Of a stretch of 64,000 nucleotides of DNA, positions 588 to 53,918 are shown one piece after another; position 1 is the stretch's first letter; every line of letters starts with the position of its first letter. A model generated the notes under the pieces. That model searched no databases. It had not been told where the DNA came from and saw only the letters and a program-made list of their open reading frames with translations. The position numbers were made by a program, and so were the translations under genes. Origin of the DNA: Escherichia coli (GTDB taxonomy: Bacteria; Pseudomonadota; Gammaproteobacteria; Enterobacterales; Enterobacteriaceae); NCBI RefSeq assembly GCF_046105845.1, contig NZ_CP151004.1; one strand, 5' to 3'.

Positions 588-767
588 TTTAATTTGTTCA
601 AAAGCTTCTAAAGTGCACAATAGGCGACCTAATGAACAATGGTTGTAAATTTGGGTAACAAATATCATTGCTCATTAATATCTAACATTTGTTTCTCCTA
701 TTTGTGTCATGAATAGTCATTCTTCAAACATGTAGTCTGACTAATGGAATTTTATTCAAGGATTTTT

Positions 768-1352
768 ATGTCTAAAAAATTAGGTTTTGCCCTGTCTGGT
801 CTTATGCTGGCAATGGTTGCAGGTACTGCTTCTGCTGATATGGACGGTGGTCAGTTAAATATCAGTGGCCTGGTTGTTGATAACACCTGTGAAACCCGCG
901 TTGACGGCGGTAACAAAGATGGCCTGATCCTGCTGCAAACCGCAACCGTTGGTGAAATCGATGCAGGCGTACTCGAAACTACCGTTGGTGCCAAGGCTAA
1001 ACCTTTCAGCATCACCGTTGATTGCAGCAAAGCAAACCCTGCACCGGGCAGCTCTGCCAAAATGACCTTCGGTTCCGTGTTCTTTGGTAACAGCAAAGGT
1101 ACGCTGAACAACGATATGTCTATCAATAACCCATCTGACGGTGTGAATATTGCTCTGCACAACATTGACGGTTCCACTGTTAAGCAGGTAAAAATTAATA
1201 ATCCTGGCGATGTTTACACTAAAGCACTGGACGCGACCACTAAATCTGTAACCTATGATTTTAAAGCATCCTATGTTCGTGCTGTAAATGACCAGACGGC
1301 AACTGCTGGTTATGTAAAAACCAATACCGCATATACCGTTACTTATCAGTAA
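768..1352 (+). CDS. yadN: Fimbrial major subunit-like protein
   Basis: ORF 744..1352; internal ATG at 768 gives signal peptide [23 protein letters not shown]; pilin-like length, Cys pair and C-terminal beta-strand (TVTYQ). Confidence 0.85.
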
Positions 1353-1386
1353 TATTTCACCGAATTAATTGATTTAGTGAATATAT

Positions 1387-1428
1387 AGGGAATAACATTG
1401 CCTGTAATTATGACAATGATTATTCCCT
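1387..1428 (+). terminator. Intergenic hairpin after the major pilin gene (AGGGAATAA...TTATTCCCT), possible partial terminator
   Basis: 9-bp inverted repeat with a ~24-nt loop between yadN and the chaperone gene; no clean T-run. Confidence 0.3.
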
Positions 1429-1457
1429 GTTCTAAATAATTCGATCAGGGATGGTTT

Positions 1458-2198
1458 ATGTTTTTTAATACAAAACATACTGTAGCATTATGCTTTGCAA
1501 CCTGTTTAGCTTTTAGCTCTTCAGCTATTGCAGATATCGTCATTTCAGGTACACGCGTTATTTACACAAGCGATCAAAAAAGTGTCAATGTACGTCTGGA
1601 AAATAAAGGCAATAACCCATTGCTGGTCCAGAGTTGGTTAGATACCGGAGATGATAACGCCGAACCTGGCAGTATCAATGTCCCATTTACGGCGACTCCC
1701 CCTGTTTCACGTATTGACGGCAAACGCGGTCAAACAATCAAGCTGATGTATACCGGCAGTTCTGCTTTACCCAAAGATCGGGAAAGTGTGTTTTGGTTCA
1801 ATGTCCTCGAAGTTCCACCAAAACCCGACGCGGAAAAAATGGCTAACCAAAGCATGTTGCAACTGGCCTTCCGTACTCGCATCAAACTGTTTTATCGTCC
1901 GGAAGGACTCACCGGAATACCGTCCGATGCTCCGGCTGCACTGAAGTGGTCGTGGACAACATCCGGCGGCAAAGTGGCGCTTCGTGTCGTTAATCCTACC
2001 CCCTTCTACGTCTCTTTCAGCAGTGGTGACGTTGTCGCCAGCGGAAAGCGTTATCCGTTAGACGTCAAAATGATCGCGCCACGCAGTGAAGATGCCATCA
2101 CAGTTAATGGGATCAGTAGCAAAGTGAGTTCTGCACAAGTTCACTTCTTTGCCATTAATGATTTTGGCGGCGCAATTGAAGGCAATGCCACTCTGTAA
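1458..2198 (+). CDS. yadV: Periplasmic PapD-like pilus chaperone
   Basis: 246-aa ORF with signal peptide and chaperone-type sequence (…FWFNVLEVPP…); position between pilin and usher genes. Confidence 0.9.
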   Translation: MFFNTKHTVALCFATCLAFSSSAIADIVISGTRVIYTSDQKSVNVRLENKGNNPLLVQSWLDTGDDNAEPGSINVPFTATPPVSRIDGKRGQTIKLMYTGSSALPKDRESVFWFNVLEVPPKPDAEKMANQSMLQLAFRTRIKLFYRPEGLTGIPSDAPAALKWSWTTSGGKVALRVVNPTPFYVSFSSGDVVASGKRYPLDVKMIAPRSEDAITVNGISSKVSSAQVHFFAINDFGGAIEGNATL

Positions 2199-2232
2199 AG
2201 TCTTCAGGATCACACGCAGCAGGAAGCAAAAC

Positions 2233-4833
2233 GTGAACAAAAAAACAACTACAAATTATCACTATCCCCTTACACATATCGCCACGTTTTGCGCACTGCT
2301 TTACAGCAGTAGTGCTTTAAGCGCCGAGCACGTTGAGTATGACAATACCTTCCTGATGGGTCGTGATGCTTCAAATATTGATCTTAGTCGCTATAGCGAG
2401 GGTAACCCAACATTACCAGGCCTTTACGACGTCAGCGTTTATATCAACGACCAGCCCGTCACCAACCAGAGCATTGCCTTTGTTACGGTTGAGGGTAAGA
2501 AAAACGCTCAGGCTTGTCTCACCCTGAAGAACTTATTGCAGTTTCATATCAATCAACCCGATATCAATGTTGCTAATGCCGTGCTGCTTGCAAGGGACAA
2601 CGAACTCGGGGATTGCCTCAACCTGGCGGAACTCATCCCCCAGACGTCGATTCGTTATGATGTCAACGATCAGCGCCTGGACATCTATGTTCCCCAGGCA
2701 TGGGTAATGAAAAATTACCAAAACTATGTTGATCCTTCCTTGTGGGAAAACGGTATCAACGCTGCAATGTTGTCTTACAACGTCAACGCATATCACAGTG
2801 AAAGCCCCGACAGGAAAAATGACAGTGTTTATGCTGCTTTTAATGGCGGTATGAATTTAGGAGCATGGCGGTTACGCGCTACCGGTAACTACAGTTGGAG
2901 GAATGATTCAGACAGTAACTATGACTTTCAGAATCGCTACCTCCAGCGCGATCTCGCATCCTTACGCTCGCAGTTAATTGTCGGTGAGTCATATACCACG
3001 GGTGAAACCTTCGATTCAGTCAGCATTCGGGGAGTTCGCTTATATAGCGACAGTCGCATGTTACCCCCTGCGTTAGCCAGTTTTGCGCCAATTATTCATG
3101 GTGTTGCGAACACTAACGCCAAGGTCACTATTACCCAGGGCAGTTATAAGATCTATGAAACCACCGTACCGCCAGGTGCGTTTGTCATCGATGATCTTAG
3201 CCCATCGGGTTACGGCAGCGATCTTATCGTCACTATTGAAGAAGCGGATGGTTCAAAGCGTACTTTCTCACAACCATTTTCATCAGTTGTACAGATGTTA
3301 CGGCCAGGCGTCGGGCGCTGGGATATCAGCGGTGGTCAGATCATAAAAGACGATATTCAAGACGAGCCCAATCTTTTTCAGGCCAGTTATTACTACGGTT
3401 TAAACAACTATCTGACCGGTTATACCGGGATCCAACTTACTGACAATCATTACACTGCCGGATTACTGGGTCTGGGCCTGAATACCTCTTTAGGTGCTTT
3501 TTCATTCGATATCACCCATTCAAATGTCAGCATTCCGGATGATAAAACCTATCAGGGGCAAAGCTATCGCCTCTCCTGGAACAAATTATTCGAAAATACC
3601 AATACATCGCTAAATATCGCGGCTTATCGCTATTCAACGCAGAATTACCTTGGCCTTAACGACGCACTGACTTTAATCGACGAAGTAAAACATCCGGAAC
3701 AGGACCTCGAACCGCAAACCATGCGTAACTACTCTCGCATGAAAAATCAGGTGACGGTCAGCATTAGCCAACCGCTGAAATTTGAGAAACAGGATTACGG
3801 TTCATTCTATCTCACCGGGGATTGGTCAGATTACTGGGCTTCCGGGCAAAATCGCAGCAATTACTCTATTGGTTACAGTAATAGCGCTTCCTGGGGGAGT
3901 TACAGCATCAGTGCACAACGTTCATGGAATGAGGATGGTGAAACGGATGATAGCATCTACCTTAGTTTCACCATTCCAATTGAAAAATTATTAGGCACAA
4001 GCCATCGCGATTCCGGTTTTCAGAGTATTGATACTCAGTTAAATAGTGATTTTAAAGGCAATAATCAGCTCAACATCAGCAGCAGTGGCTTTAGCGACGC
4101 AAATCGCGTCAGTTACAGCGTAAACACCGGCTATACAATGATGAAAGCCAGTGACGATTTAAGTTACATCGGTGGTTATGCCAGTTACGAATCGCCCTGG
4201 GGAACGCTTGCAGGTTCCGTTTCCGCAAGTAGCGATAACAGTCGTCAATTCTCGCTTAATACTGACGGTGGATTCGTGCTGCACAGCGGCGGCCTGACAT
4301 TCAGTAACGATAGCTTTAGCGACTCCGACACACTTGCCGTTGTACAAGCCCCTGGAGCAAAAGGTGCGCGCATTAACTATGGCAACAGTACAGTAGACCG
4401 CTGGGGATACGGCGTGACCAGTGCCCTCTCGCCATATCATGAAAACCGTATCGCTCTGGACATTAGCGGAATCGAAAATGATGTAGAAATGAAATCTACC
4501 AGTGCAATTGCCGTCCCTCGTCAGGGCTCTGTTGTCTTCGCCGATTTTGAAACCGTCCAGGGACAATCGGCAATCATGAATATTAAACGTACTGACGGTA
4601 AAAATATTCCATTCGCGGCGGATATCTTTGATGAACAAAATAACATGATTGGTAACGTCGGCCAGGGCGGACAAGCTTTTGTTCGAGGCATCGAACAGCA
4701 AGGTAATATCCGCATCAACTGGGTTGAAGAGGGTAAACCTGTCGCATGTATTGCCCATTATAAGCAAACAGCGGATCAACAAAAATTAACACAAACTATT
4801 ATTCTGAATGGAATTAGTTGTCAGATACAGTAA
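2233..4833 (+). CDS. htrE: Outer membrane fimbrial usher
   Basis: 894-aa ORF (2149..4833) overlaps the chaperone 3' end; GTG at 2233 preceded by AGGAAG is the more likely start (~866 aa); usher-like size and sequence. Confidence 0.88.
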   Translation: MNKKTTTNYHYPLTHIATFCALLYSSSALSAEHVEYDNTFLMGRDASNIDLSRYSEGNPTLPGLYDVSVYINDQPVTNQSIAFVTVEGKKNAQACLTLKNLLQFHINQPDINVANAVLLARDNELGDCLNLAELIPQTSIRYDVNDQRLDIYVPQAWVMKNYQNYVDPSLWENGINAAMLSYNVNAYHSESPDRKNDSVYAAFNGGMNLGAWRLRATGNYSWRNDSDSNYDFQNRYLQRDLASLRSQLIVGESYTTGETFDSVSIRGVRLYSDSRMLPPALASFAPIIHGVANTNAKVTITQGSYKIYETTVPPGAFVIDDLSPSGYGSDLIVTIEEADGSKRTFSQPFSSVVQMLRPGVGRWDISGGQIIKDDIQDEPNLFQASYYYGLNNYLTGYTGIQLTDNHYTAGLLGLGLNTSLGAFSFDITHSNVSIPDDKTYQGQSYRLSWNKLFENTNTSLNIAAYRYSTQNYLGLNDALTLIDEVKHPEQDLEPQTMRNYSRMKNQVTVSISQPLKFEKQDYGSFYLTGDWSDYWASGQNRSNYSIGYSNSASWGSYSISAQRSWNEDGETDDSIYLSFTIPIEKLLGTSHRDSGFQSIDTQLNSDFKGNNQLNISSSGFSDANRVSYSVNTGYTMMKASDDLSYIGGYASYESPWGTLAGSVSASSDNSRQFSLNTDGGFVLHSGGLTFSNDSFSDSDTLAVVQAPGAKGARINYGNSTVDRWGYGVTSALSPYHENRIALDISGIENDVEMKSTSAIAVPRQGSVVFADFETVQGQSAIMNIKRTDGKNIPFAADIFDEQNNMIGNVGQGGQAFVRGIEQQGNIRINWVEEGKPVACIAHYKQTADQQKLTQTIILNGISCQIQ

Positions 4834-4849
4834 CAACAAGGAATCTCAC

Positions 4850-5416
4850 ATGATAAAAATAGCACCCTATAAATTGGCGATACTGACGGGAATAATGTTA
4901 TCTCCTTGTGTATTAGCTACGGATATTAATGTCGAATTTACGGCAACCGTAAAAGCAACGACATGTAATATTAAGATAACCGGTAATAATGTCACCGAAG
5001 ACGGAAATGACAGTTATACGTTAACATTACCCAATATGGGTCTGGATCAAATAGTAAATAAAACCACCAGGGCCCAGGCTGACTTTACGATGGTAGCCAG
5101 TGGTTGCAGTGCAGGTATCAGCCATATTGATACTACATTGTCAGGTAATGGGTCCCGAACCTTTGATAGACTTGTTATACCGCTGTCTTCAGACACCACA
5201 TCAACCACCAGTTATATCGGTATGGGGTTCAAAAAACGTAATGCTGGTGATGAAACATTTTTAAAACCAAACAGCGCAGAAAAAATACGCTGGAGTGCAA
5301 CAGAAATTAGTACCACAGGTCTGGAAATGACCGTGGCACTACGTGAAACGAGCGCAGGTGAGGGGATACCCGGAGACTTTCGTGCTCAGGCAATTTTCAA
5401 TTTCACCTATGAATAA
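4850..5416 (+). CDS. yadM: Fimbrial minor subunit-like protein
   Basis: ORF 4808..5416; ATG at 4850 preceded by AAGGAA gives signal peptide MIKIAPYKLAILTGIMLSPCVLA; pilin-like. Confidence 0.8.
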   Translation: MIKIAPYKLAILTGIMLSPCVLATDINVEFTATVKATTCNIKITGNNVTEDGNDSYTLTLPNMGLDQIVNKTTRAQADFTMVASGCSAGISHIDTTLSGNGSRTFDRLVIPLSSDTTSTTSYIGMGFKKRNAGDETFLKPNSAEKIRWSATEISTTGLEMTVALRETSAGEGIPGDFRAQAIFNFTYE

Positions 5417-5421
5417 CAAGG

Positions 5422-6036
5422 ATGACAATGATGAAATTTAAACCTTCACGTTTTGGATTATCGACTGCAACTATTCTGGCGGCATCAGTGCTCACTTTTT
5501 CGTCATTTGCTGCGACTGATAGCGTTAAATTAAATGTAAAAACCACGGTAGAAATGGGAACCTGTACAGCCAGTCTGGTTGATGATAATGATCAAACCAT
5601 TTCTGTCGTTGCTTTTGGCGATGTTTATATTTCTGAAATCAATGCAAAAACAAAAATCAAAACCTTTAAATTACAGTTTAAAGACTGCGCGGGGATACCT
5701 GGCAAAAAAGCTAAGATTAAACTGACAAAACGTGCCACCTGTGAAGGAGCAAGTAACGACGGTCCCGGTTTTGCTAATGGCTCCACGGCTAGCGATAAAG
5801 CAAGTGCTGTTGCGGTTGAAGTGTGGAATACGAGCACTCCAGCAGTTGGTAGTGCCACACAATTCAGTTGCGTTACCCCAGCCGATCAGGAAGTGTCTAT
5901 TGCCACAGCCACGGGGAATACAGTTGTAGATTATCCGATGAGTGCGCGCCTGGTCGTGGATAAGAGTAAAACCGTAAGCGATGTTACAGCGGGCACATTT
6001 TCAGCACCAGCAACTTTCTCTGTGACATACAACTAA
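5422..6036 (+). CDS. yadL: Fimbrial minor subunit-like protein
   Basis: 204-aa ORF with signal peptide, pilin-like; start may be the internal ATG at 5431. Confidence 0.8.
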   Translation: MTMMKFKPSRFGLSTATILAASVLTFSSFAATDSVKLNVKTTVEMGTCTASLVDDNDQTISVVAFGDVYISEINAKTKIKTFKLQFKDCAGIPGKKAKIKLTKRATCEGASNDGPGFANGSTASDKASAVAVEVWNTSTPAVGSATQFSCVTPADQEVSIATATGNTVVDYPMSARLVVDKSKTVSDVTAGTFSAPATFSVTYN

Positions 6037-6062
6037 CGGCACGTCGAATTCAGGAACTGATT

Positions 6063-6659
6063 ATGCTTTCCTCTAAACGTAAAATTAAGAAAAAAACAGG
6101 TCTGTTCCTGGCATTCATATTCACTACTTCCTTTTCGGCCTTCGCCGGGCAGGATATTAATTTAACTGCGAATGTAAAAAACAGCACTTGCCAGAGCGGT
6201 ATCAGTAATCAGGGAAATATAGATCTGGGTGTGGTTGGCGTGGGCTATTTTGCTGGTAATATTCCTCCCGAGAGTTATCAGACTGGTGGTAAAGAGTTCA
6301 CCATATCGGTGAAAGACTGTGCATTTCAGGGAACAGGAAATGTCTTAAATCAACTACACATAGACTTTAGGGCACAAAGTGGTGCAATGGCTAATGGTTC
6401 CCGACAAATATTTGCCAATGAAATTTCGTCAGGGGCGAGTAATGTAGGAGTGGTTATATTTTCTATCCAGGATTCGGCGAATATATTCAATGTTCTTAAT
6501 GCTTCAGGCGGTTCTCGCTCCGTTTATCCAGTAATGTCGGATGACATGAATGGTTCGTCCTGGAAATTTAGCACCCGAATGCAAAAAATTGATCCTGCAT
6601 TGAGTGTTACATCTGGTCAACTTATGAGCCATGTGTTAGTTGATATTTACTACGAATAA
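6063..6659 (+). CDS. yadK: Fimbrial minor subunit-like protein
   Basis: 198-aa ORF with signal peptide; pilin-like. Confidence 0.8.
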   Translation: MLSSKRKIKKKTGLFLAFIFTTSFSAFAGQDINLTANVKNSTCQSGISNQGNIDLGVVGVGYFAGNIPPESYQTGGKEFTISVKDCAFQGTGNVLNQLHIDFRAQSGAMANGSRQIFANEISSGASNVGVVIFSIQDSANIFNVLNASGGSRSVYPVMSDDMNGSSWKFSTRMQKIDPALSVTSGQLMSHVLVDIYYE

Positions 6660-6708
6660 CGAACAAAAATAACACCAACTCTAACAAAAACTCAATACTG
6701 GAGTAAAA

Positions 6709-7944
6709 ATGAAGACACTCTTCAGATACTTTCTTTTTTTAGCACTGTATTCTTGTTGTTATACAGTTAGTGCATATACAAGTTTTATTGTGGGAAATAA
6801 TGCAGGAGTTGATAATTATAAAGGACCTTCCACTGCTGCACGGGTAACCTTTAATTACACATCAACAGCAAGCAACCTGGTTTTTTATAAACCCACGCAA
6901 CTCGGCCCGACAGGGGTAAAAATGTACTGGTCATACCTGGACACGGGTCCGAGTGGTATTCTTTACTGTAATACATCTGGCAGAGCAAATCCTGGGCCAA
7001 TAACCATTGAAAATGCCATGGTTTATTCAGGTAAAGATTATGGTGGACATAAACTCTTTAAGACATCTGTTCCTGGTCTGTATTACACCATGTTAATATC
7101 AAGGGTCTGGTCTGCATACAATACAACAACTGATATTCAATCACCAGGAATCTATATCGGAGACACTTCAACCCAACAATTTCACTTCTCCATAACAGAC
7201 AACGATCTACAAACCAAGGGTTGCAACAAAGCAAACAGCTACGATAAGTTTTGGGCTATTGGTGGTGTTGTACACGACATAACTGTTGAATTTTATACAG
7301 ATGCTAGTTTCGATCCTACACTTAATCAGCAAGTCCAGTTATCCAGTTCATCCGATTACCTTTATGCGTTTAAGGCCTACAGTCCAGGTACCAGAGTCGT
7401 AGATCATAGCCATCACCTTTATGTCAATTTCACACTGAATAATGTCAAATTAACCTTACCAACATGTTTTACCTCCATACTTACCGGATCATCAGTCAAT
7501 GGTTCAACGGTTAGAATGGGAGAGTATAGTTCCGGGACAATTAAAAATGGAGCGTCACCTGTTCCCTTTGATATCTCGCTTCAGAATTGTATTCGTGTGC
7601 GTAATATTGAAACAAAACTCGTCACTGGAAAAGTAGGTACTGAAAACACACAACTGCTTGGCAATACGCTTACCGGAAGTACTGCTGCTAAAGGCGTTGG
7701 CGTACTCATTGAAGGATTAGCAACCAGTAAAAATCCGCTAATGACATTAAAACCTAACGATGCAACCTCTATTTATAAAGATTATGAAACCGAAGATGAC
7801 ACATCCGATGGAGTATACCCTAATCAAGGTAGCGGCACATCACAGCCTCTTCACTTCCAGGCAACGTTAAAACAAGACGGAAATATCGCTATCGAATCCG
7901 GTGAATTCAAAGCCACCAGTACCTTCCAGGTAACCTATCCTTGA
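6709..7944 (+). CDS. yadC: Fimbrial tip adhesin-like protein (two-domain)
   Basis: 411-aa ORF with signal peptide; last gene of the chaperone-usher operon; C-terminal pilin-like strand (FQVTYP). Confidence 0.8.
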
Positions 7945-34888: not shown

Positions 34889-35048
34889 GGGTTATTCCTT
34901 ATCTATCTAATAACGTTGAGTTTTCTGGAACCTGTCCCATTGAACTCTCGCCGGAAAGCTCAATAAGACAGGTTCTACGTTTAGTTGCCGCGCTTTTATA
35001 TGCGCTTGATTTACAACATCTTCTGGATAATTTTTACCAGAAAAATCA

Positions 35049-39199: not shown

Positions 39200-40153
<954 letters not shown>

Positions 40154-40165
40154 TTGCTGACAGAT

Positions 40166-40191
40166 TTATCCGCTCCATCGCGGGCGGATAA
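40166..40191 (+). terminator. Hairpin after nadC (TTATCCGC-loop-GCGGATAA)
   Basis: 8-bp perfect stem 13 nt after the nadC stop; pyrimidine-rich tail, no clean T-run. Confidence 0.35.
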
Positions 40192-40355
40192 TCTCCCCTT
40201 TCCCAACTTTCTTCGCAACGCCTCGCAAATTTCTTGTCTTTCGCTGCAACGTAATAAAAAACTCCGGAAGCTGCTTTCCCGTTTCGTTTTTTGCCCCTCG
40301 CTTGTGCTGATGGCGTTTGCCAAAGTAGCGCCAACCAAATCAAGGAGCGAAACAA

Positions 40356-40796
40356 ATGGACAAGCAACGCGGTTTTACACTTATCGAACTGATGGTGGTT
40401 ATTGGCATCATTGCCATTTTAAGCGCCATTGGTATTCCCGCTTATCAAAACTACCTGCGCAAAGCCGCACTCACCGACATGCTACAAACCTTTGTGCCTT
40501 ACCGTACCGCCGTAGAGTTGTGCGCGCTGGAACATGGTGGATTAGATACCTGCGACGGTGGCAGTAATGGCATCCCCTCGCCTACCACCACCCGCTATGT
40601 TTCAGCCATGAGTGTGGCAAAGGGCGTGGTGTCGCTGACCGGGCAAGAAAGTCTCAATGGGCTAAGCGTCATCATGACGCCGGGTTGGGATAACGCAAAC
40701 GGCGTCACCGGTTGGACGCGCAACTGCAATATTCAAAGTGACAGCGCATTGCAGCAAGCCTGCGAAGATGTCTTTCGCTTTGATGACGCAAACTAA
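40356..40796 (+). CDS. ppdD: Type IV prepilin-like major pilin
   Basis: 146-aa ORF with prepilin leader and N-methylation motif (MDKQRGFTLIELMVVIGIIAILSAIGIPAY). Confidence 0.95.
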   Translation: MDKQRGFTLIELMVVIGIIAILSAIGIPAYQNYLRKAALTDMLQTFVPYRTAVELCALEHGGLDTCDGGSNGIPSPTTTRYVSAMSVAKGVVSLTGQESLNGLSVIMTPGWDNANGVTGWTRNCNIQSDSALQQACEDVFRFDDAN

Positions 40797-40805
40797 GGAG
40801 TGGCA

Positions 40806-42191
40806 ATGAATATTCCACAGCTCACTGCCCTGTGTCTGCGTTATCAGGGAGTCTTGCTGGATGCCAGCGAAGAGGTGGTTCATGTTGCGGTAGTCGATGC
40901 ACCTTCGCATGAGCTACTGGACGCATTGCATTTCGCTACCACCAAACGTATTGAGATAACCTGCTGGACGCGCCAACAAATGGAAGGTCACGCCAGTCGC
41001 ACACAACAGACATTGCCCGTAGCTGTTCAGGAGAAGCATCAGCCCAAAGCAGAGTTGCTGACTCGAACGTTACAATCTGCGCTGGAACAACGCGCGTCTG
41101 ATATTCATATCGAACCAGCGGACAATGCCTACCACATCCGCTTGCGTATCGACGGCGTATTGCATCCTTTACCGGATGTTTCACCGGATGCCGGAGTCGC
41201 ATTAACCGCCAGATTAAAAGTTCAGGGAAACCTGGATATTGCGGAACATCGCCTGCCGCAGGACGGGCAATTCACTGTCGAACTGGCAGGAAACGCCGTC
41301 TCATTTCGTATTGCGACCTTACCATGTCGGGGTGGTGAAAAGGTGGTATTAAGGTTGTTACAGCAGGTGAGCCAGGCACTGGATGTTAACACGCTGGGAA
41401 TGCAGCCGTTGCAACTGGCGGGCTTTGCTCATGCCTTGCAACAACCACAGGGACTGGTGCTGGTAACAGGCCCTACCGGCAGCGGCAAAACGGTCACGCT
41501 TTATAGTGCCCTGCAAACGCTGAATACCGCTGACATTAATATTTGTAGCGTCGAAGATCCGGTTGAGATCCCCATAGCCGGACTAAACCAGACGCAAATC
41601 CATCCGCGTGCCGGACTCACCTTTCAGGGCGTTTTGCGTGCGTTATTGCGCCAGGACCCTGACGTCATCATGATCGGAGAGATCCGCGATGGCGAAACGG
41701 CAGAAATTGCCATAAAAGCCGCACAAACCGGTCACCTGGTGTTGTCCACGCTACACACCAATTCCACCTGCGAAACGCTGGTGCGTTTACAGCAAATGGG
41801 CGTTGCTCGCTGGATGCTCTCATCGGCACTTACGCTGGTAATAGCCCAGCGTCTGGTACGTAAACTTTGCCCACATTGTCGCCGACAGCAAGGGGAGCCC
41901 ATCCATATTCCAGACAATGTATGGCCATCGCCGCTGCCCCACTGGCAGGCACCCGGTTGTGTACATTGCTACCACGGTTTTTATGGTCGCACGGCCTTAT
42001 TTGAAGTTCTGCCCATAACACCGGTCATACGTCAGCTTATTTCCGCTAATACCGACGTTGAATCGCTGGAAATGCACGCCCGACAGGCGGGTATGCGTAC
42101 GCTTTTTGAAAACGGCTGCCTGGCCGTGGAGCAAGGCTTAACCACCTTTGAAGAGTTAATCCGCGTATTGGGGATGCCGCATGGCGAGTAA
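40806..42191 (+). CDS. hofB: Type IV pilus / T2SS GspE-family assembly ATPase
   Basis: ORF 40800..42191; ATG at 40806 gives 461 aa; Walker A GPTGSGKT and zinc-binding CxxC…CxxC. Confidence 0.94.
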   Translation: MNIPQLTALCLRYQGVLLDASEEVVHVAVVDAPSHELLDALHFATTKRIEITCWTRQQMEGHASRTQQTLPVAVQEKHQPKAELLTRTLQSALEQRASDIHIEPADNAYHIRLRIDGVLHPLPDVSPDAGVALTARLKVQGNLDIAEHRLPQDGQFTVELAGNAVSFRIATLPCRGGEKVVLRLLQQVSQALDVNTLGMQPLQLAGFAHALQQPQGLVLVTGPTGSGKTVTLYSALQTLNTADINICSVEDPVEIPIAGLNQTQIHPRAGLTFQGVLRALLRQDPDVIMIGEIRDGETAEIAIKAAQTGHLVLSTLHTNSTCETLVRLQQMGVARWMLSSALTLVIAQRLVRKLCPHCRRQQGEPIHIPDNVWPSPLPHWQAPGCVHCYHGFYGRTALFEVLPITPVIRQLISANTDVESLEMHARQAGMRTLFENGCLAVEQGLTTFEELIRVLGMPHGE

Positions 42192-43383
42192 GCAACTCTG
42201 GCGCTGGCATGGCATAACCGGCGACGGCAATGCGCAAGATGGGATGCTATGGGCTGAGAGCCGTGCTTTGCTGCTCATAGCACTACAGCAACAGATGGTT
42301 ACCCCACTCAGCCTGAAGCGAATCGCCATCAATTCTGCGCAGTGGCGAGGAGATAAAAGCACGGAAGTCATTCATCAACTGGCGACGCTACTCAAAGCCG
42401 GGTTAACGCTTTCTGAAGGGCTGGCACTGCTGGCGGAACAGCATCCCAGTAAGCAATGGCAAGCGTTGCTGCAATCGCTGGCGCACGATCTCGAACAGGG
42501 CATTGCTTTTTCCAATGCCTTATTACCCTGGTCAGAGGTATTTCCGCCGCTCTATCAGGCAATGATCCGCACGGGGGAATTGACTGGTAAGTTAGATGAA
42601 TGTTGCTTTGAACTTGCTCGACAGCAAAAAGCCCAGCGTCAGTTAGCCGATAAAGTGAAATCAGCGTTGCGTTATCCCATCATCATTTTAGCGATGGCAA
42701 TCATGGTGGTTGTGGCAATGCTGCATTTTGTGCTGCCGGAGTTTGCCGCTATCTATAAGACCTTTAACACTCCGCTACCGGCGCTAACGCAGGGGATCAT
42801 GACGCTGGCAAGCTTTAGTGGCGAATGGGGTTGGTTGCTGGTGCTATTCGGCTTTCTGCTGGCGATAGCCAATAAGCTGCTGATGCGCCACCCAACCAGG
42901 CTTATCGCACGGCAGAAATTGCTGTTACGCATCCCGATTATGGGTTCACTGATGCGGGGACAAAAACTCACACAGATCTTTACGATTCTGGCGCTGACAC
43001 AAAGTGCAGGCATTACTTTTTTACAGGGCGTAGAGAGCGTCAGAGAAACAATGCGCTGCCCGTACTGGGTGCAACTTCTGACACAAATCCAGCACGATAT
43101 CAGTAACGGTCAACCCATCTGGCTGGCGCTAAAAAATGCCGGTGAGTTTAGCCCACTCTGTTTGCAATTAGTGAGAACAGGAGAGGCATCCGGCTCGCTG
43201 GATCTCATGTTAGACAACCTCGCCCATCATCATCGGGATAACACACTGGCGCTGGCGGATAACCTCGCAGCCTTACTGGAACCGGCGTTGCTGATCATAA
43301 CGGGAGGAATTATCGGTACGCTGGTGGTGGCAATGTATCTGCCAATTTTCCATTTAGGCGATGCGATGAGTGGAATGGGATAA
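42181..43383 (+). CDS. hofC: Type IV pilus / T2SS GspF-family inner membrane platform protein
   Basis: 400-aa ORF overlapping hofB by 11 nt; GspF-like. Confidence 0.94.
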   Translation: MASKQLWRWHGITGDGNAQDGMLWAESRALLLIALQQQMVTPLSLKRIAINSAQWRGDKSTEVIHQLATLLKAGLTLSEGLALLAEQHPSKQWQALLQSLAHDLEQGIAFSNALLPWSEVFPPLYQAMIRTGELTGKLDECCFELARQQKAQRQLADKVKSALRYPIIILAMAIMVVVAMLHFVLPEFAAIYKTFNTPLPALTQGIMTLASFSGEWGWLLVLFGFLLAIANKLLMRHPTRLIARQKLLLRIPIMGSLMRGQKLTQIFTILALTQSAGITFLQGVESVRETMRCPYWVQLLTQIQHDISNGQPIWLALKNAGEFSPLCLQLVRTGEASGSLDLMLDNLAHHHRDNTLALADNLAALLEPALLIITGGIIGTLVVAMYLPIFHLGDAMSGMG

Positions 43384-43410
43384 CGCTGGCGTGTTGCTCC
43401 GCGCCAGCGT
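43383..43410. terminator. Hairpin between convergent hofC and guaC (ACGCTGGCG-loop-CGCCAGCGT)
   Basis: Perfect 9-bp stem in the 34-bp convergent spacer; no T-tract on either strand. Confidence 0.4.
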
Positions 43411-43417
43411 TGGGAGA

Positions 43418-44461
43418 TTACAGGTTGTTGAAGATGCGGTTTTCTTGTTCCAGCACACGAATAAACGTGGTGCGCTTGGTCAGCTCTTTCAGGCGTGAAG
43501 CCCCAACGTATGTACAAGCTGAACGCAGGCCGCCCAAAATATCACGTGCGGTATTTTCAACCGGGCCTCGCAGCGGCAGCTTAACGGTTTTACCTTCTGC
43601 TGCGCGATATTCCGCAACGCCGCCAACGTGACGTTTCATCGCAGACTCGGAGCTCATGCCGTAGAACAGCATAAATTTCTCGCCGTTCTCCTCAACGATG
43701 CGACCGCCGCTCTCTTCGTGGCCCGCCAGCATGCCGCCAAGCATGACGAAATCGGCACCGCCGCCAAAGGCTTTCGCGACATCGCCCGGCGTGGTGCAGC
43801 CACCGTCGCTGACGATCATTCCGCCCAGACCATGCGCAGCATCGGCACATTCGATCACCGCAGAAAGTTGCGGATAACCGACGCCTGTTTTGACGCGAGT
43901 TGTACAAACAGAACCTGGGCCAATGCCAACTTTAACGATATCAGCACCGGAGAGGATAAGCTCCTCACACATTTCACCAGTCACTACGTTGCCAGCACAA
44001 ATGGTTTTGGTCGGCCACGCTTCACGCGCTTTCGCAACGAACTGCACGAAGTGTTCGGAATAACCATTCGCCACGTCAATACAAACGAAATTTAATGCCG
44101 GGTTTAGGTCGAGAATCTGTTTAGTTTTTTCGAAATCCGCATCAGACGTGCCGGTAGAAACCATCACATGTTTCAGCACATCAGCGGAAGAATTGTTGAT
44201 AAACGCTTGCCACTCTTCAACAGAATAGTGTTTATGCACAGCAGTCAAAATATCAAAAGAAGCCAGCGCAGAGGCCATAGAAAATGTGCCTACGGTGTCC
44301 ATATTTGCGGCGATAATCGGCACGCCGGACCAGCTCTGACCTGAATGTTTGAAGGTGAATTGACGTTCCAGTTCAACATCGGAACGGCTTTTAAGAGTGG
44401 AGCGTTTAGGGCGGATGAGAACGTCTTTAAAACCTAACTTCAGATCTTCTTCAATACGCAT
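43418..44461 (-). CDS. guaC: GMP reductase
   Basis: 347-aa ORF recognised as GuaC ([29 protein letters not shown]...). Confidence 0.96.
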
Positions 44462-46856: not shown

Positions 46857-46915
46857 TGTCTTAAACCTATAAAAAAGGCGCAGAATCCTGCGCCTTTTAC
46901 TTCAACTGTTAGCTT

Positions 46916-49621
46916 TTATTGCAGGCGACCATGGCACTGCTTGTATTTTTTACCAGAACCGCACGGGCAAGGATCGTTACGTCCTACTTTGCGTTCACCG
47001 GTTTGCGCCGCCAGTGCAGCTGCGGCTGCAGAGTCGTCATCCTGATGGCTAAGCTGCTGCATTTGCGCTAAACGCTCGGCTTCCATACGACGCTGTTGTT
47101 CCAGCTCCTCAACCTCTTCAGGCATACGTACCTGAACTTTGCTCAGCGTGCTGATAACTTCATATTTCAACGACTCCAGCATCGCTGCAAACATGGAGAA
47201 CGATTCACGTTTGTATTCCTGCTTCGGATCTTTCTGTGCATAGCCACGCAGGTGGATACCCTGACGCAGATAGTCCATCGCTGCCAGGTGCTCTTTCCAC
47301 AGAGAGTCGAGAGTTTGCAGCATGACGCCTTTCTCGAAGTGACGCATCATCTCTGCACCAACCACTTCTTCTTTACGCTGATACACTTCGATGGACTGCG
47401 CCAGAATGCGCTCACGCAGCGTCTCTTCATGCAGTTCTGGTTCTTTATCCAGCCACTCAGCAATTGGTAAATCGAGGTCGAAATCGTTCTTCAGACGTTC
47501 CTGCAGCCCCGGAATATCCCACATTTCTTCCAGCGACTGTGGTGGAATGTAGGCATCAATGGTCGCTTTGAACACATCTTCACGAATGCTGTTGATGGTT
47601 TCGCTCACATCGCTGACATCCAGCAGTTCGTTACGCTGGGAGTAAATGGCGCGACGCTGATCGTTAGCCACGTCATCATATTCCAGCAGTTGCTTACGAA
47701 TGTCGAAGTTACGACTTTCAACTTTACGCTGGGCGTTGGCAATCGCTTTAGTCACCCACGGGTGTTCAATGGCTTCGCCTGGCTTCATACCCAGTTTACG
47801 CATCATGCCGGATACTCGGTCGGAAGCAAAAATACGCATCAGCGCATCTTCCATCGACAGGTAGAAACGGGAAGAACCAGCATCCCCCTGACGACCAGAA
47901 CGACCGCGCAACTGGTTATCGATACGACGGGATTCGTGACGCTCGGTACCGATGATATGCAGGCCACCTGCTGCCAGTACCGCATCGTGACGTACCTGCC
48001 AGTCGGCTTTAATTTTTTCAATTTGCTCTGCGGTCGGATTTTCCAGCGCGGCAACTTCTGCCTGCCAGCTACCACCGAGCACAATATCTGTACCACGACC
48101 CGCCATGTTGGTCGCGATAGTCACCGCAGCCGGATAACCTGCCTGAGCAACAATCGCCGCTTCGTTGGCGTGGAATTTGGCGTTCAGGACATTGTGCTTA
48201 ATACCGGCTTTGGTCAGTTCGTTTGACACCAGCTCCGATTTTTCGATGGAGATAGTACCCACCAGCACCGGCTGGCCTTTCGCAGTACGTTCTTTGATAT
48301 CTTCAATGATCGCCTGAATTTTTTCCGCTTCAGTCATGTAGACCAGGTCCGGCAGATCTTTACGAATCATTGGACGGTTGGTCGGAACAACGACGGTATC
48401 CAGCTTGTAGATGGAGCTAAATTCGAAAGCTTCGGTATCAGCAGTACCGGTCATCCCCGCCAGTTTTTCATACAGACGGAAGTAGTTCTGGAAGGTGATC
48501 GACGCCAGCGTCTGGTTTTCGTTCTGGATCTGTACACCTTCTTTCGCTTCCACTGCCTGATGCAGGCCATCGGACCAACGACGTCCCTGCATGGTACGAC
48601 CGGTGTGTTCGTCAACGATGATAACTTCACCATCTTTAACGATGTAGTCGACGTCTCGGGTAAACAGCGCATGAGCGCGCAGCGCCGCCGTTACGTGGTG
48701 CATCAGCATGATGTTGGCCGGAGAGTACAGAGACTCCCCTTCATCCATGATGCCTTCTTTCACCAGCAGTTCTTCAATCAGCACCAGACCACGTTCGGTC
48801 AGGTTCACCTGGCGAGATTTTTCGTCCACCGAGAAGTGGCCTTCGCCCTGGAAGGTTTCGGAGTCTTCTTTTTCCTGACGGATCAGGTGCGGAATAATTT
48901 TATTCACGCGTTTATACATTTCCGAGCTGTCTTCTGCCGGGCCGGAAATGATCAGCGGTGTACGCGCTTCATCGATCAGGATGGAGTCCACTTCGTCCAC
49001 CAGCGCATAGTGCAGTTTACGCTGTACACGTTCTTCAGGGCTGAACGCCATGTTATCGCGCAGGTAGTCAAAGCCGTATTCGTTGTTCGTACCGTAAGTG
49101 ATGTCAGCTGCGTAAGCTTCACGCTTCGCCGGTGCTGGCATGCCCGGCAGGTTGATACCGACAGTCAGGCCAAGGAATTCAAACAGCGGACGGTTGTTTT
49201 CGGCGTCACGTTGCGCCAGGTAGTCGTTGACGGTAACAACGTGTACGCCCTTACCGGTTAATGCGTTCAGGTAAGCAGGCAGCGTTGCGGTCAGGGTTTT
49301 ACCTTCACCGGTACGCATTTCGGCGATGCAGCGTTCGTTAAGAACCATACCGCCGAGTAACTGAACGTCGAAGTGACGCATACCAAAGACGCGCTTACTT
49401 GCCTCACGCACCACGGCGAAAGCTTCCGGGATCAGATTTTCCAGCACTTCGCCTTTTTCCAGACGTGCACGAAACTCTGCGGTTTTCCCTTTCAGTTCTT
49501 CGTCGGAGAGTTTTTCCATCTCCGGTTCCATGGCATTGATGATGTTGACCACTTTGCGCATCCGGCGCAGGGTGCGATCGTTACGACTACCGAAAACTTT
49601 AGTTAATAATTTGATTAGCAT
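46916..49621 (-). CDS. secA: Preprotein translocase ATPase SecA
   Basis: 901-aa ORF recognised as SecA, including C-terminal zinc-binding [14 protein letters not shown]. Confidence 0.98.
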
Positions 49622-51443: not shown

Positions 51444-52595
51444 TTAATCAGCTTGCTTACGCAGGAATGCTGGGATATCCAGATAATCCGGCTCTTTCGC
51501 AGTTTGCGGCGCATTGTCATTCACGACTTTAGCAACCGGCTTCTGCTCCTGGGTCAGCGGAGCCATCCCGTGCTGCTGGTAGCGATCCATCACTGGCTGC
51601 TGAACCTGCTTATTGGTCACCAGAGTGATTTCAGGACGTTTGTCCATGCCGATACCTGTCGCAACAACAGTTACGCGCAGCTCGTCATTCATATCCGGGT
51701 CAAGAGAAGTACCAATAACCACAGTCGCGTTGTCGGAAGCAAATGCACGGATGGTGTTACCTACCGTTTCAAACTCATCCAGACGCAGGTCGAAGCCCGC
51801 CGTGATGTTAACCAGCACGCCGCGTGCGCCAGACAGGTCGATATCTTCCAGCAGCGGAGAAGAGATAGCCATTTCAGCAGCTTCTTCCGCACGGTCTTCA
51901 CCACTCGCCACGCCAGAACCCATCATTGCGTAGCCCATTTCAGACATTACGGTGCGTACGTCTGCAAAGTCCACGTTCATCAAACCCGGACGAGTAATCA
52001 GTTCGGCGATACCTTGCACAGCGCCTTTGAGTACGTCGTTCGCTGCGCCAAACGCATCCAGCAGGGAGATACCGCGGCCCAGAACTTTCAGCAGTTTGTC
52101 GTTCGGGATCGTGATCAGAGAGTCCACATGTTTGGACAGTTCAGTGATCCCCTGCTCCGCGAATGCCATACGCTTCTTGCCTTCAAAGTTGAAAGGCTTA
52201 GTGACGACAGCAACGGTCAGGATACCCAAATCTTTTGCCACTTCAGCGACGACTGGAGCTGCGCCTGTACCGGTACCACCACCCATACCCGCAGCAATAA
52301 AGACCATGTCTGCACCTTCCAGCGCCGCACGCAGTGCATCGCGATCCTCATCAGCCGCATTACGGCCAACTTCTGGATTAGCGCCAGCGCCCAGTCCTTT
52401 GGTGATACCGCTACCGATTTGAATCGTCTGTCCAACCGCTGTTTTACGCAGCGCTTGTGCATCGGTATTTACCGCGAAGAATTCAACACCTTCAATGCGC
52501 TCGCGCACCATGTGTTCAACAGCATTACCGCCGCCGCCGCCGACGCCGATGACTTTAATCACCGCGTCATTGGTAAGTTCCATTGGTTCAAACAT
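51444..52595 (-). CDS. ftsZ: Cell division GTPase FtsZ
   Basis: 383-aa ORF with tubulin signature GGGTGTG. Confidence 0.98.
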
Positions 52596-52655
52596 AGTTT
52601 CTCTCCGATTTGTGCCTGTCGCCTGAGGCCGTAATCATCGTCGGCCTCATAAAAA

Positions 52656-53918
52656 TTAAAACTCTTTTCGCAGCCAACTATTGAGTCGCTTGATCCACGA
52701 GCCAACTGATGCTGTAACACGTTTTTCTACTTCAGCTTCACCGTTAAGATGTGACTCTTTTCCATAGTGAAGCAATCCCACCGCCGTCGAATAATACGGC
52801 TCCTGAGCATAATCCGTTAAACCGGTAATGTTCAGCGGCGCGCCGATACGCACTTGCGTATGAAACACGCGCTGAGCACAGGCTGCAAGACCTTCGATCT
52901 GCGCTGCGCCACCAGTTAAAACAATGCCTGCCGCCAGGTGATGTTTAACCCCTTGTTGGCGAAGCTTTTCCTGCAACTGCAATATCTCTTCGTTGACCAG
53001 GTTGAGCAGCTCGGTATAGCGCGGCTCGATCACCTCTGCCAGGGTCTGACGTTGCAGACTCCGCGGCGGACGACCACCTACGCTCGGCACTTCCACGCTC
53101 TCATCTTTTCCAACGATGGAACCCAGCGCACAACCGTGGCGAACTTTAATCGCTTCGGCGTCGCTTGGCGGCGTGCCAAAGGCGTAAGCGATATCACTGG
53201 TCACGACATTGCCAGCATAAGGAATTACCTTAGTGTGGCGCAATGCCCCACCGGTATAAACGGCGATATCCATTGTACCACCACCGATATCGACGACGCA
53301 GACACCCAGTTCACGTTCATCTTCCGTCAATACCGAATAACTTGATGCCAGTCCGGCAAATATCAGTTGGTCAACTTTCAGCCCACAACGTTCAACCGCT
53401 TTGACGATGTTTTTCGCCATATCGTTGTGACATGTGATCAGGTGCACTTTTGCCTGCATCCTCACGCCCGAAAGTCCTACCGGATTCTTGATCCCTTCCT
53501 GATAGTCAATCGCATACTCTTGCGGGATCACATGCAGCACACGATGCTCATCGCGCACACGCACCGATTTCGCGGTATGGACGACGTTTTCCACATCTTC
53601 TTGCGTCACTTCTTCTTCAGAAATAGGCACCATACCAATTTCATTCTGGCAGCTGATGTGCTTACCAGAAAGCGCCAGATATACCGAAGAGATCTGACAA
53701 TCTGCCATCAATTCTGCCTGGTCAATGGCGCGTTGTACGCACTTGACCACGGATTCGAGGTCGTTCACCCCGCCTTTATCCATACCACGTGACGGGCAGC
53801 TGCCCACGCCAATGATATTGACCATACCGTCGGGCAGAACTTCCCCTACTAAAGCGGCAACCTTCGCGGTACCAATCTCCAGTCCTACTACCAGTTTTCT
53901 GTCCGTCGCCTTGATCAT
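52656..53918 (-). CDS. ftsA: Cell division protein FtsA
   Basis: 420-aa actin-like ORF; dcw cluster synteny. Confidence 0.97.

Follow-up and report, generated by a model that had tools for sequence, protein, structure and literature searches.

The ppdD-hofB-hofC type IV pilus operon of an Escherichia coli chromosome: intact genes, a candidate CRP-S site and unlinked partners

Genes and proteins of the locus

The 64-kb stretch of Escherichia coli DNA analyzed here, referred to as the window, carries three closely packed open reading frames (ORFs) on the plus strand at positions 40356–43383, each of them intact and corresponding to ppdD, hofB and hofC. The features assigned to the locus are listed below.

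40209..40230, plus strand: candidate CRP-S (Sxy-dependent CRP) site, ttcTTCGCaacgccTCGCAaat, proposed from its core match and conservation, with a putative function here
40342..40347, plus strand: Shine–Dalgarno sequence AAGGAG of ppdD, read from the sequence and invariant in a five-genome alignment
40356..40796, plus strand: ppdD, major type IV prepilin, 146 aa
40806..42191, plus strand: hofB, assembly ATPase of the PilB/GspE family, 461 aa
42181..43383, plus strand: hofC, inner-membrane platform protein of the PilC/GspF family, 400 aa, with two T2SSF domains
43381..43412, no strand assigned: 13-bp GC-rich hairpin filling the 34 nt that separate the stop codons of hofC and the convergent guaC

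The three genes are colinear with b0108, b0107 and b0106 of E. coli K-12. Relative to K-12 MG1655, the encoded proteins have equal lengths and differ by 1 (PpdD), 7 (HofB) and 12 (HofC) substitutions, and no internal stop or frameshift is present in any of the three genes. The start of hofB was placed at the ATG at 40806, following the K-12 and RefSeq annotations, rather than at the GTG at 40800 given in the ORF list; an AAGGAG Shine–Dalgarno sequence lies just 5′ of this ATG. Further downstream, the start of hofC overlaps the stop of hofB by 11 nt.

The operon is embedded in the gene order ampE-ampD, nadC-ppdD-hofB-hofC, guaC (minus strand) and coaE-zapD-yacG, which is common to K-12, strain LR-28, Salmonella and Enterobacter. 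The flanking genes are thus those of the reference locus, establishing orthology by position. Nucleotide identity to K-12 reaches 97.5% across 6 kb around the operon, with 198 of 210 positions identical in the nadC-ppdD promoter spacer. Of the 5,426 complete E. coli genomes, 5,424 carry the locus, 5,423 of them at a query coverage of 80% or higher. The complete genomes closest to the window share 98.4–99.2% identity with it, so that it has no near relative among complete genomes, and the draft assembly GCA_018015415.1 (contig DADWIC010000001.1) is 100% identical over 21 kb. At the distal end, the hairpin at 43381–43412 has a predicted folding energy of −22.8 kcal/mol (z = −3.2 relative to shuffled sequences) and is followed by no U-run on either strand; it is probably a transcription stop common to hofC and guaC.

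PpdD begins with a class III signal peptide, the short basic leader MDKQRG being followed by the hydrophobic N-terminal helix in FTLIELMVVIGIIAIL, so that the junction reads MDKQRG/FTLIE. Cleavage is predicted before Phe7, and Gly6, Phe7 and Glu11 (the +5 residue) are all present. The protein matches Pfam N_methyl (E = 2.6e-10), Pfam Pilin and NCBIfam NF007862 (269 bits, cut-off 138). Its four cysteines, at residues 56, 66, 124 and 136, could form two disulfides. Mature PpdD is identical at 138 of 140 residues to the PpdD of the solved enterohaemorrhagic E. coli (EHEC) pilus 6GV9, and this identity, together with published heterologous and reconstituted assembly, suggests that it would assemble into a filament.

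HofB carries the motifs of a PilB/GspE-type ATPase: the Walker A motif GPTGSGKT (aa 222–229, nt 41469–41492), the Asp box VEDPVE (aa 249–254), the Walker B motif DPDVIMIGEIRD (aa 284–295), the His box (aa 309–318) and a tetracysteine composed of CPHC (aa 355–358, nt 41868–41879) and CVHC (aa 385–388, nt 41958–41969), for which homology predicts zinc binding. It matches Pfam T2SSE (E = 3.9e-146) as well as MshEN, and NCBIfam NF007755 (817 bits, cut-off 617). Its nearest relatives of solved structure are PilB and GspE/EpsE. HofC has the composition of a platform protein, with Pfam T2SSF matched in two stretches and NCBIfam NF007861 scoring 653 bits (cut-off 401), and it matches the PilC of 3JC8. 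The pilin is unusually well conserved: E. coli and Salmonella share 90% identity in PpdD, compared with 76% in HofB and 70% in HofC.

The initial annotation had described all three ORFs as full length with intact motifs, and this description is borne out by the K-12-equal lengths and by the location of every motif it named. Frameshifts, which it had regarded as the case against its reading, were looked for on re-inspection and found in none of the three genes.

The promoter region and conditional expression

The candidate CRP-S site at 40209–40230 agrees with TGCGA-N6-TCGCA at 8 of its 10 core positions, and the nadC-ppdD spacer contains no other match with at most two mismatches. Its right half-site is a perfect TCGCA, its left half-site is imperfect with C6 kept, and both C6 and G17 are present; the halves are of the TGCGA type, without the canonical TGTGA, as is characteristic of CRP-S sites. 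Across the window, CRP-S matches with at most two mismatches occur about once per 2 kb, fewer than in shuffled sequence, and the 8/10 core match by itself is not significant. The weight of the assignment lies in conservation and in a published electrophoretic mobility shift assay (EMSA). The half-sites, in the form TTnTTCG-N7-TCGCAAA, are invariant among E. coli, Salmonella and Enterobacter, position 8 of the left half-site being C here and T in K-12, and a comparable CRP-S-like site lies approximately 125–140 nt 5′ of the pilin ATG in most of the Enterobacterales loci examined. The site also falls within the segment corresponding to the published EMSA fragment (PMC1635313).

No sigma-70 consensus promoter was detected in 39900–43700, and −10 and −35 elements could not be fitted convincingly at the spacing from the site that is canonical for CRP; a conserved TAAAA at about 40255 would set the CRP-S centre near −47. 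Two terminator-like candidates between the site and the pilin gene were rejected. The first, a conserved GAA...TTC followed by a T6 run at 40266–40292, resembled an attenuator in the ppdD leader and was dropped because its consensus fold reaches only −1.7 kcal/mol with 4 pairs. The second, called on the minus strand at 40281–40265, hinges on a G-T pair. In the 120 nt read upstream of K-12 hofM, no obvious TGCGA-type site was seen.

Published work on K-12 describes how this promoter behaves. Earlier attempts to detect the ppdD transcript had failed; EMSA and quantitative PCR subsequently revealed weak yet specific binding of CRP to the ppdD promoter fragment and a 90-fold induction of ppdD by Sxy, which is absolutely dependent on CRP and cAMP and lost in crp and cyaA backgrounds (PMC1635313). 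At the protein level, PpdD was detected in ordinary culture in 0 of 72 ECOR strains, and processed PpdD appeared once sxy was induced (PMC3330819). The proposal of conditional, competence-type expression is therefore supported for the K-12 orthologue by this CRP and Sxy work, with which the comparative data agree. Of the initial designation of the operon as intact but normally silent, the first part follows from the sequence, and the second rests on the published work on the K-12 orthologue, as silence cannot be read from sequence. Given the conserved site, Sxy/CRP-S regulation through 40209–40230 in this strain is presumably the same as in K-12.

Unlinked partners and the absence of pilD

The window had been reported to encode no prepilin peptidase or secretin, a claim that direct searches confirmed: tblastn with K-12 HofQ, GspD, GspO, PppA and HofM-P, together with three PilD proteins of relatives, gave no hit better than E = 0.23. 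A pilD remnant was also considered and rejected, as the PilD searches found none in the 64-kb window.

Comparison with other lineages offers an explanation for the missing peptidase. Outside Enterobacterales, the gene order is pilA-pilB-pilC-pilD-coaE-zapD-yacG, and pilC and coaE are separated by a Peptidase_A24 gene in Utexia (Orbales, locus L020) and on contigs L017 and L021. In contrast, pilD is absent from the locus in Salmonella, Enterobacter, Buttiauxella, Pectobacterium, the unclassified "Enterobacteriaceae bacterium ML5" and Photorhabdus; all Enterobacterales loci examined are without it, and in most of them the convergent guaC directly follows hofC. The missing linked peptidase is therefore probably a lineage-wide loss from an ancestral pilABCD arrangement, which itself is reconstructed from only three pilD-positive loci.

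Dependence on unlinked genes, likewise proposed at the outset, is well supported by the literature and by the near-universal presence of the partners in the species. Sxy-induced DNA uptake needs the unlinked secretin gene hofQ (PMC3330819), and published pilus-expression plasmids combine ppdD-hofBC with hofMNOPQ, ppdAB-ygdB-ppdC and gspO, a 13-gene set. For prePpdD processing, PppA is cited as the enzyme. Of the 5,426 complete E. coli genomes, 5,425 contain hofMNOPQ; the same count was obtained for the minor pilins and for sxy, the latter being at least 99% identical in 5,370. K-12-type gspO was found in 3,158 genomes and pppA in 3,640, and these two genes together cover only 4,672 of 5,426 even with sensitive blastn included, a shortfall that would leave the pilus orphaned in many E. 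coli. That idea was rejected because a third peptidase gene raises the coverage to 5,421 of 5,426. This gene, seen in strain LR-28, encodes a 155-aa stand-alone Peptidase_A24 protein, adjoins bfr and occurs in 2,256 genomes; 5 of the 5,426 genomes have no recognizable gene of the three. From these species-wide frequencies, the partner genes are expected to be present in this strain as well.

Function, maintenance and relation to known systems

Taken together, ppdD-hofB-hofC in the window is almost certainly the chromosomal type IVa pilus operon of E. coli, an orthologue of pilA-pilB-pilC that is controlled by Sxy and reliant on unlinked partners. The operon encodes three core pilus parts, namely the major pilin, a cytoplasmic hexameric assembly ATPase and the inner-membrane platform. 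In K-12 it is essentially off in ordinary culture until Sxy (TfoX) lets cAMP-CRP act on the weak promoter through the non-canonical CRP-S site, and the same would hold here. The operon alone is insufficient for a pilus: prePpdD has to be cleaved by a peptidase encoded elsewhere, for which PppA, the K-12-type GspO and the 155-aa stand-alone enzyme adjoining bfr are candidates, and other loci must also provide the alignment proteins HofMNOP, the secretin HofQ and the minor pilins PpdA, PpdB, YgdB and PpdC. One reported output of the system is the uptake of DNA after Sxy induction; another, reported for EHEC, is the adhesive pilus HCP.

The locus corresponds to K-12 ppdD-hofB-hofC and EHEC hcpA-hcpB-hcpC (haemorrhagic coli pilus), with the same genes, order, lengths and neighbors (nadC upstream and convergent guaC downstream), and the differences observed here are allelic only. 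The pilA-pilB-pilC-pilD competence-pilus operons of Pasteurellaceae, Vibrionaceae and Orbales L020 share its pilin–ATPase–platform order and are likewise preceded by ampD and followed by coaE-zapD-yacG, and CRP-S/Sxy control has been reported for the pilABCD competence operons of other gamma-proteobacteria (PMC1635313). They differ in having pilD as a fourth gene, whereas here, as in the other Enterobacterales examined, guaC follows hofC and processing falls to unlinked peptidases. The Gsp alpha and beta type II secretion systems (T2SSs) of E. coli possess a homologous ATPase, platform protein and pilin-like subunit and have the prepilin peptidase GspO or PppA in common with the pilus; unlike them, the present locus has no adjacent GspC, D, L, M or minor pseudopilins, and its product would be a genuine pilus, not a pseudopilus of the periplasm.

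The reading that competes best, unlikely though it is, holds that the operon encodes mainly an adhesive or virulence pilus of the HCP type, induced by host or nutrient cues, instead of a Sxy-controlled DNA-uptake machine. EHEC grown on minimal casein medium produces PpdD/HcpA pili, EHEC hcpABC expressed in K-12 places the pilin on the surface, and uropathogenic E. coli (UPEC) hofQ mutants colonize the mouse kidney poorly. Evidence to the contrary comes from the conservation of the CRP-S-like site, from the requirement of the K-12 orthologue for Sxy and from the core status of sxy, with its near-identity in most genomes. Since the two roles are not mutually exclusive, an adhesive function would refine the Sxy-controlled pilus explanation rather than replace it, and the use of the same pilus as an adhesin by EHEC makes a competence-only view too narrow.

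There is a very small chance that this lineage might be among the 5 of 5,426 without a peptidase, so that an intact, selected operon would be orphaned, and that the unusual conservation of the pilin could stem from a constraint so far unrecognized, for instance that PpdD binds DNA directly; no positive evidence for either emerged here.

It is even less probable that the operon is a decaying relic, intact by chance and out of use. Natural expression has gone undetected in K-12 and ECOR strains, the locus is without pilD, and some E. coli variants in databases have a HofC shorter by 23 aa or a HofB-HofC fusion, all of which would fit decay. Set against this, dN/dS relative to K-12 is 0.05 for ppdD, 0.06 for hofB and 0.10 for hofC, similar to the neighboring housekeeping genes nadC (0.07) and guaC (0.02), and these values indicate maintenance of the genes, not decay. 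This selection signal already contradicts a relic, as do the query coverage of at least 80% in all but three of the complete genomes, the synteny and promoter motif kept across Enterobacterales, and the ability of K-12, when induced, to yield processed PpdD and take up DNA via HofQ.

A type II protein-secretion system in place of a pilus is just as improbable: RefSeq labels hofB "type II secretion system protein GspE", a name also borne by the NCBIfam equivalog, HofB shares 44% identity with K-12 GspE, and PpdD weakly resembles GspG, but no clustered gspC, D, L, M, gspG-K or secretin gene occurs in the window or in the syntenic annotation, HofB is closest to PilB ATPases among proteins of solved structure, a solved pilus filament is built of PpdD subunits, and orthologous loci outside Enterobacterales have the classic pilABCD arrangement.

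The operon is already known: publications from the 1990s and 2000s onward have described it, along with its silence in the laboratory, its control through Sxy and CRP-S and its reliance on partners encoded elsewhere. Being well studied, intact in almost every E. coli and served by helpers elsewhere in the chromosome, the locus is an ordinary one. The contribution of this analysis lies in showing that purifying selection acts on the three genes, all of them intact, that the partners are effectively universal in the species, and that the missing peptidase has an evolutionary explanation; the dN/dS values, the conserved CRP-S-like site, the partner counts in 5,426 genomes and the pilD comparison are new supporting detail.

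Two further observations concern the peptidase genes. Next to bfr, the 225-aa GspO inside the T2SS-alpha cluster and the 155-aa stand-alone enzyme are mutually exclusive, and keeping account of these two peptidases may help annotators. In addition, pppA is also present in two-thirds of E. coli genomes.

Architecture and identity of the ppdD-hofB-hofC operon

The locus is the ppdD-hofB-hofC (hcpABC) operon, which belongs to the type IVa pilus family and to the CRP-S/Sxy regulon; the latter is defined by Sxy(TfoX)-dependent, non-canonical CRP sites. It comprises three open reading frames (ORFs):

40356-40796, + strand, ppdD, 146 aa
40806-42191, + strand, hofB, 461 aa, ATG start at 40806
42181-43383, + strand, hofC, 400 aa

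The initial annotation had described these genes as intact, with a prepilin leader, a Walker A motif and a CxxC site, and had proposed dependence on unlinked genes and conditional expression. The observation is confirmed and the interpretation supported, but both were already established knowledge. All three ORFs were read without encountering an internal stop, and PpdD, HofB and HofC have exactly the K-12 MG1655 lengths, with 1, 7 and 12 substitutions, respectively. Each of the named motifs was located: the leader of PpdD (MDKQRG/FTLIE), Walker A of HofB (GPTGSGKT, aa 222-229) and its CxxC pair (CPHC, aa 355-358; CVHC, aa 385-388). HofB additionally carries an Asp box, Walker B and a His box, and PpdD contains four cysteines. 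The genes are closely packed, with 9 nt between ppdD and hofB and an 11-nt overlap between hofB and hofC. The ORF listing places the hofB start at GTG 40800, within the AAGGAG Shine-Dalgarno sequence of the ATG at 40806 that the K-12 and RefSeq annotations use. Downstream, hofC and the convergent guaC have their stop codons 34 nt apart, and this gap is occupied by a 13-bp hairpin (-22.8 kcal/mol, z = -3.2).

Family assignments were obtained from Pfam (N_methyl and Pilin for PpdD; T2SSE and MshEN for HofB; T2SSF in two stretches for HofC) and from NCBIfam, in which all three proteins scored far over the curated equivalog cut-offs. The solved EHEC type IV pilus (6GV9) is built of a subunit that shares 138 of 140 residues with mature PpdD, the solved structures nearest to HofB are PilB ATPases and EpsE, and HofC matches PilC. 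Although RefSeq calls hofB 'GspE', a type II secretion system was ruled out because no copy of gspC, D, L or M lies nearby. In some E. coli records (among P0001-P0005 and P0008), HofC is 377 aa long (23 aa shorter) or is part of a 674-aa HofB-HofC fusion, so that a minority of strains carry a changed, or wrongly called, version of the operon. One metagenomic gene call fuses IMPDH and T2SSF domains.

Upstream region and conditional expression

The spacer between nadC and ppdD contains one candidate regulatory site:

40209-40230, + strand, candidate CRP-S site, 22-mer ttcTTCGCaacgccTCGCAaat, right half perfect, left half retaining C6

Its core (40212-40227) is the sole match to TGCGA-N6-TCGCA with at most two mismatches in the spacer. 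Across the whole window, 31 such matches were observed against 43 expected, and one such match is by itself not significant. When the spacer is aligned with those of K-12, LR-28, Salmonella and Enterobacter, both half-sites (TTnTTCG and TCGCAAA) stay unchanged and the flanks diverge. In most of the fetched Enterobacterales loci, a site that agrees at 8-9 of the 10 core positions is located 125-140 nt 5' of the pilin ATG. The site also falls in a segment matching the EMSA fragment of Cameron and Redfield, who reported weak but specific CRP binding at ppdD (PMC1635313).

[quoted passage not shown] The proposed competence-type expression is supported by the 90-fold induction of ppdD by Sxy, for which CRP and cAMP are absolutely required (PMC1635313), and by the processed PpdD and hofQ-dependent DNA uptake that follow sxy induction (PMC3330819). 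[quoted passage not shown]

No sigma-70 consensus promoter was found in 39900-43700 (2.8 expected), and no convincing -10 element for ppdD could be placed upstream. Further spacer blocks show no variation from E. coli through to Enterobacter, namely TAAAA at about 40255, GAA...TTC at 40266-40277, T6 at 40287-40292 and TGCCAAAGT at 40318-40326 (all + strand); they may act as promoter elements or as a signal in the 5' UTR. A candidate ppdD leader hairpin was rejected, its fold being negligible. Just 3' of the nadC stop, an 8-bp inverted repeat (TTATCCGC...GCGGATAA, 40166-40193, + strand) is kept in the three E. coli sequences, though not in those of Salmonella and Enterobacter, and could be the terminator of nadC, even without a following T-run.

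Unlinked partners and the absence of pilD

A prepilin peptidase and a secretin are absent from the window, as initially noted. In tblastn searches of the 64 kb, K-12 HofQ, GspD, GspO, PppA and HofM-P gave nothing better than E = 0.23 and three PilD proteins from relatives gave no match; the controls were positive (GspE to hofB, 1e-97; GspG to ppdD, 4e-9). Dependence on unlinked genes is supported by the requirement of uptake for hofQ (PMC3330819) and by the citation of PppA for prePpdD processing (PMC4971541). In both K-12 and LR-28, the distance between ppdD and the peptidase partner exceeds 1 Mb.

Table. Matches to partner genes across 5,426 complete E. coli genomes
hofMNOPQ: 5,425
ppdAB-ygdB-ppdC: 5,425
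sxy: 5,425 (at least 99% identical in 5,370)
K-12-type gspO: 3,158
pppA: 3,640
gspO or pppA: 4,672
155-aa bfr-adjacent peptidase: 2,256
any of the three peptidases: 5,421

By sensitive blastn, 754 genomes without gspO or pppA seemed to be peptidase-less, an appearance resolved by a gene of strain LR-28. In the bfr-rpsJ interval, the only gene that LR-28 carries encodes 155 aa and bears a prepilin peptidase annotation (L023:14353-14820, the fetched LR-28 locus), whereas K-12 carries a T2SS-alpha cluster ending in gspO. The 155-aa protein is a clear Peptidase_A24, 40% identical to GspO with no detectable DNA similarity, and searching NCBIfam with it at a cut-off of E = 1e-10 gave no hit. Since the counts for gspO and the 155-aa gene add up to 5,414 of 5,426, they suggest mutually exclusive alternatives at one position. 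With any of the three in 5,421 genomes, a peptidase partner is effectively universal in E. coli.

Distant PilC homologues were reached with HofC and their gene neighbourhoods read. In Salmonella, Enterobacter, Buttiauxella, Pectobacterium and the unclassified 'Enterobacteriaceae bacterium ML5', nadC, pilin, ATPase and platform genes come in that order, the very next gene (guaC wherever identifiable) is convergent, and no Peptidase_A24 is present at these five loci; the Photorhabdus contig stops just beyond hofC. Utexia brackfieldae (order Orbales) and one other contig have the order pilin-ATPase-platform-Peptidase_A24-coaE-zapD-yacG, with ampD upstream, and a third contig has ATPase-platform-Peptidase_A24-coaE. 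The pilA-D operons described in Pasteurellaceae and Vibrionaceae likewise carry pilD, whereas ppdD-hofB-hofC does not. Together with those operons, this small sample of loci suggests that pilD was lost from the locus in the Enterobacterales lineage.

Conservation, strain lineage and other features of the window

Relative to K-12, dN/dS (Nei-Gojobori) is 0.05 for ppdD, 0.06 for hofB and 0.10 for hofC, with 0.07 and 0.02 for the flanking housekeeping genes nadC and guaC; values against LR-28 are similar. Judged by these ratios, the operon is under purifying selection and so would still be functional, though silent in the laboratory. The fastest-evolving component is usually the surface-exposed major pilin. 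Between E. coli and Salmonella (locus L011), PpdD is better conserved (90% identity) than HofB (76%) or HofC (70%), with NadC at 90% and CoaE at 88%, and identities to the Utexia proteins are 50%, 49% and 33% for PpdD, HofB and HofC.

The locus is present in 5,424 of 5,426 complete E. coli genomes with a top identity of just 98.4%, and the best identities for two other segments of the window are 98.4% and 99.2%; this E. coli lineage is therefore without a close complete-genome relative. The exact HofC sequence occurs in draft assembly GCA_018015415.1, whose contig DADWIC010000001.1 is 100% identical to window 32181-53383 (21 kb).

Gene order is that of the E. coli 2.5-minute region: yad fimbriae, panBC, gcd, cueO, speED, acnB, lpd-aceFE-pdhR, aroP, ampED, nadC, ppdD-hofBC, guaC, coaE-zapD-yacG, mutT, secA and the dcw cluster. 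The first 24 kb (1-24000) are at least 80% covered in just 3,833 genomes, with most matches 90-95% identical, unlike the rest of the window. The chaperone-usher yad cluster (about 744-7944; usher ORF 2149-4833, yadC-like adhesin 6709-7944) sits in this variable stretch. Three Rfam sRNA families scored above their gathering scores: tp2 (34891-35004, + strand), adjoining the pdhR-aceE region; STnc40 (46871-46940, - strand), between mutT and secA; and PssrA, 'Plasmid-encoded Shigella sRNA A' (52587-52676, - strand; 105 bits against 69). The PssrA match is chromosomal, at the ftsA-ftsZ junction, a location at odds with the family name.
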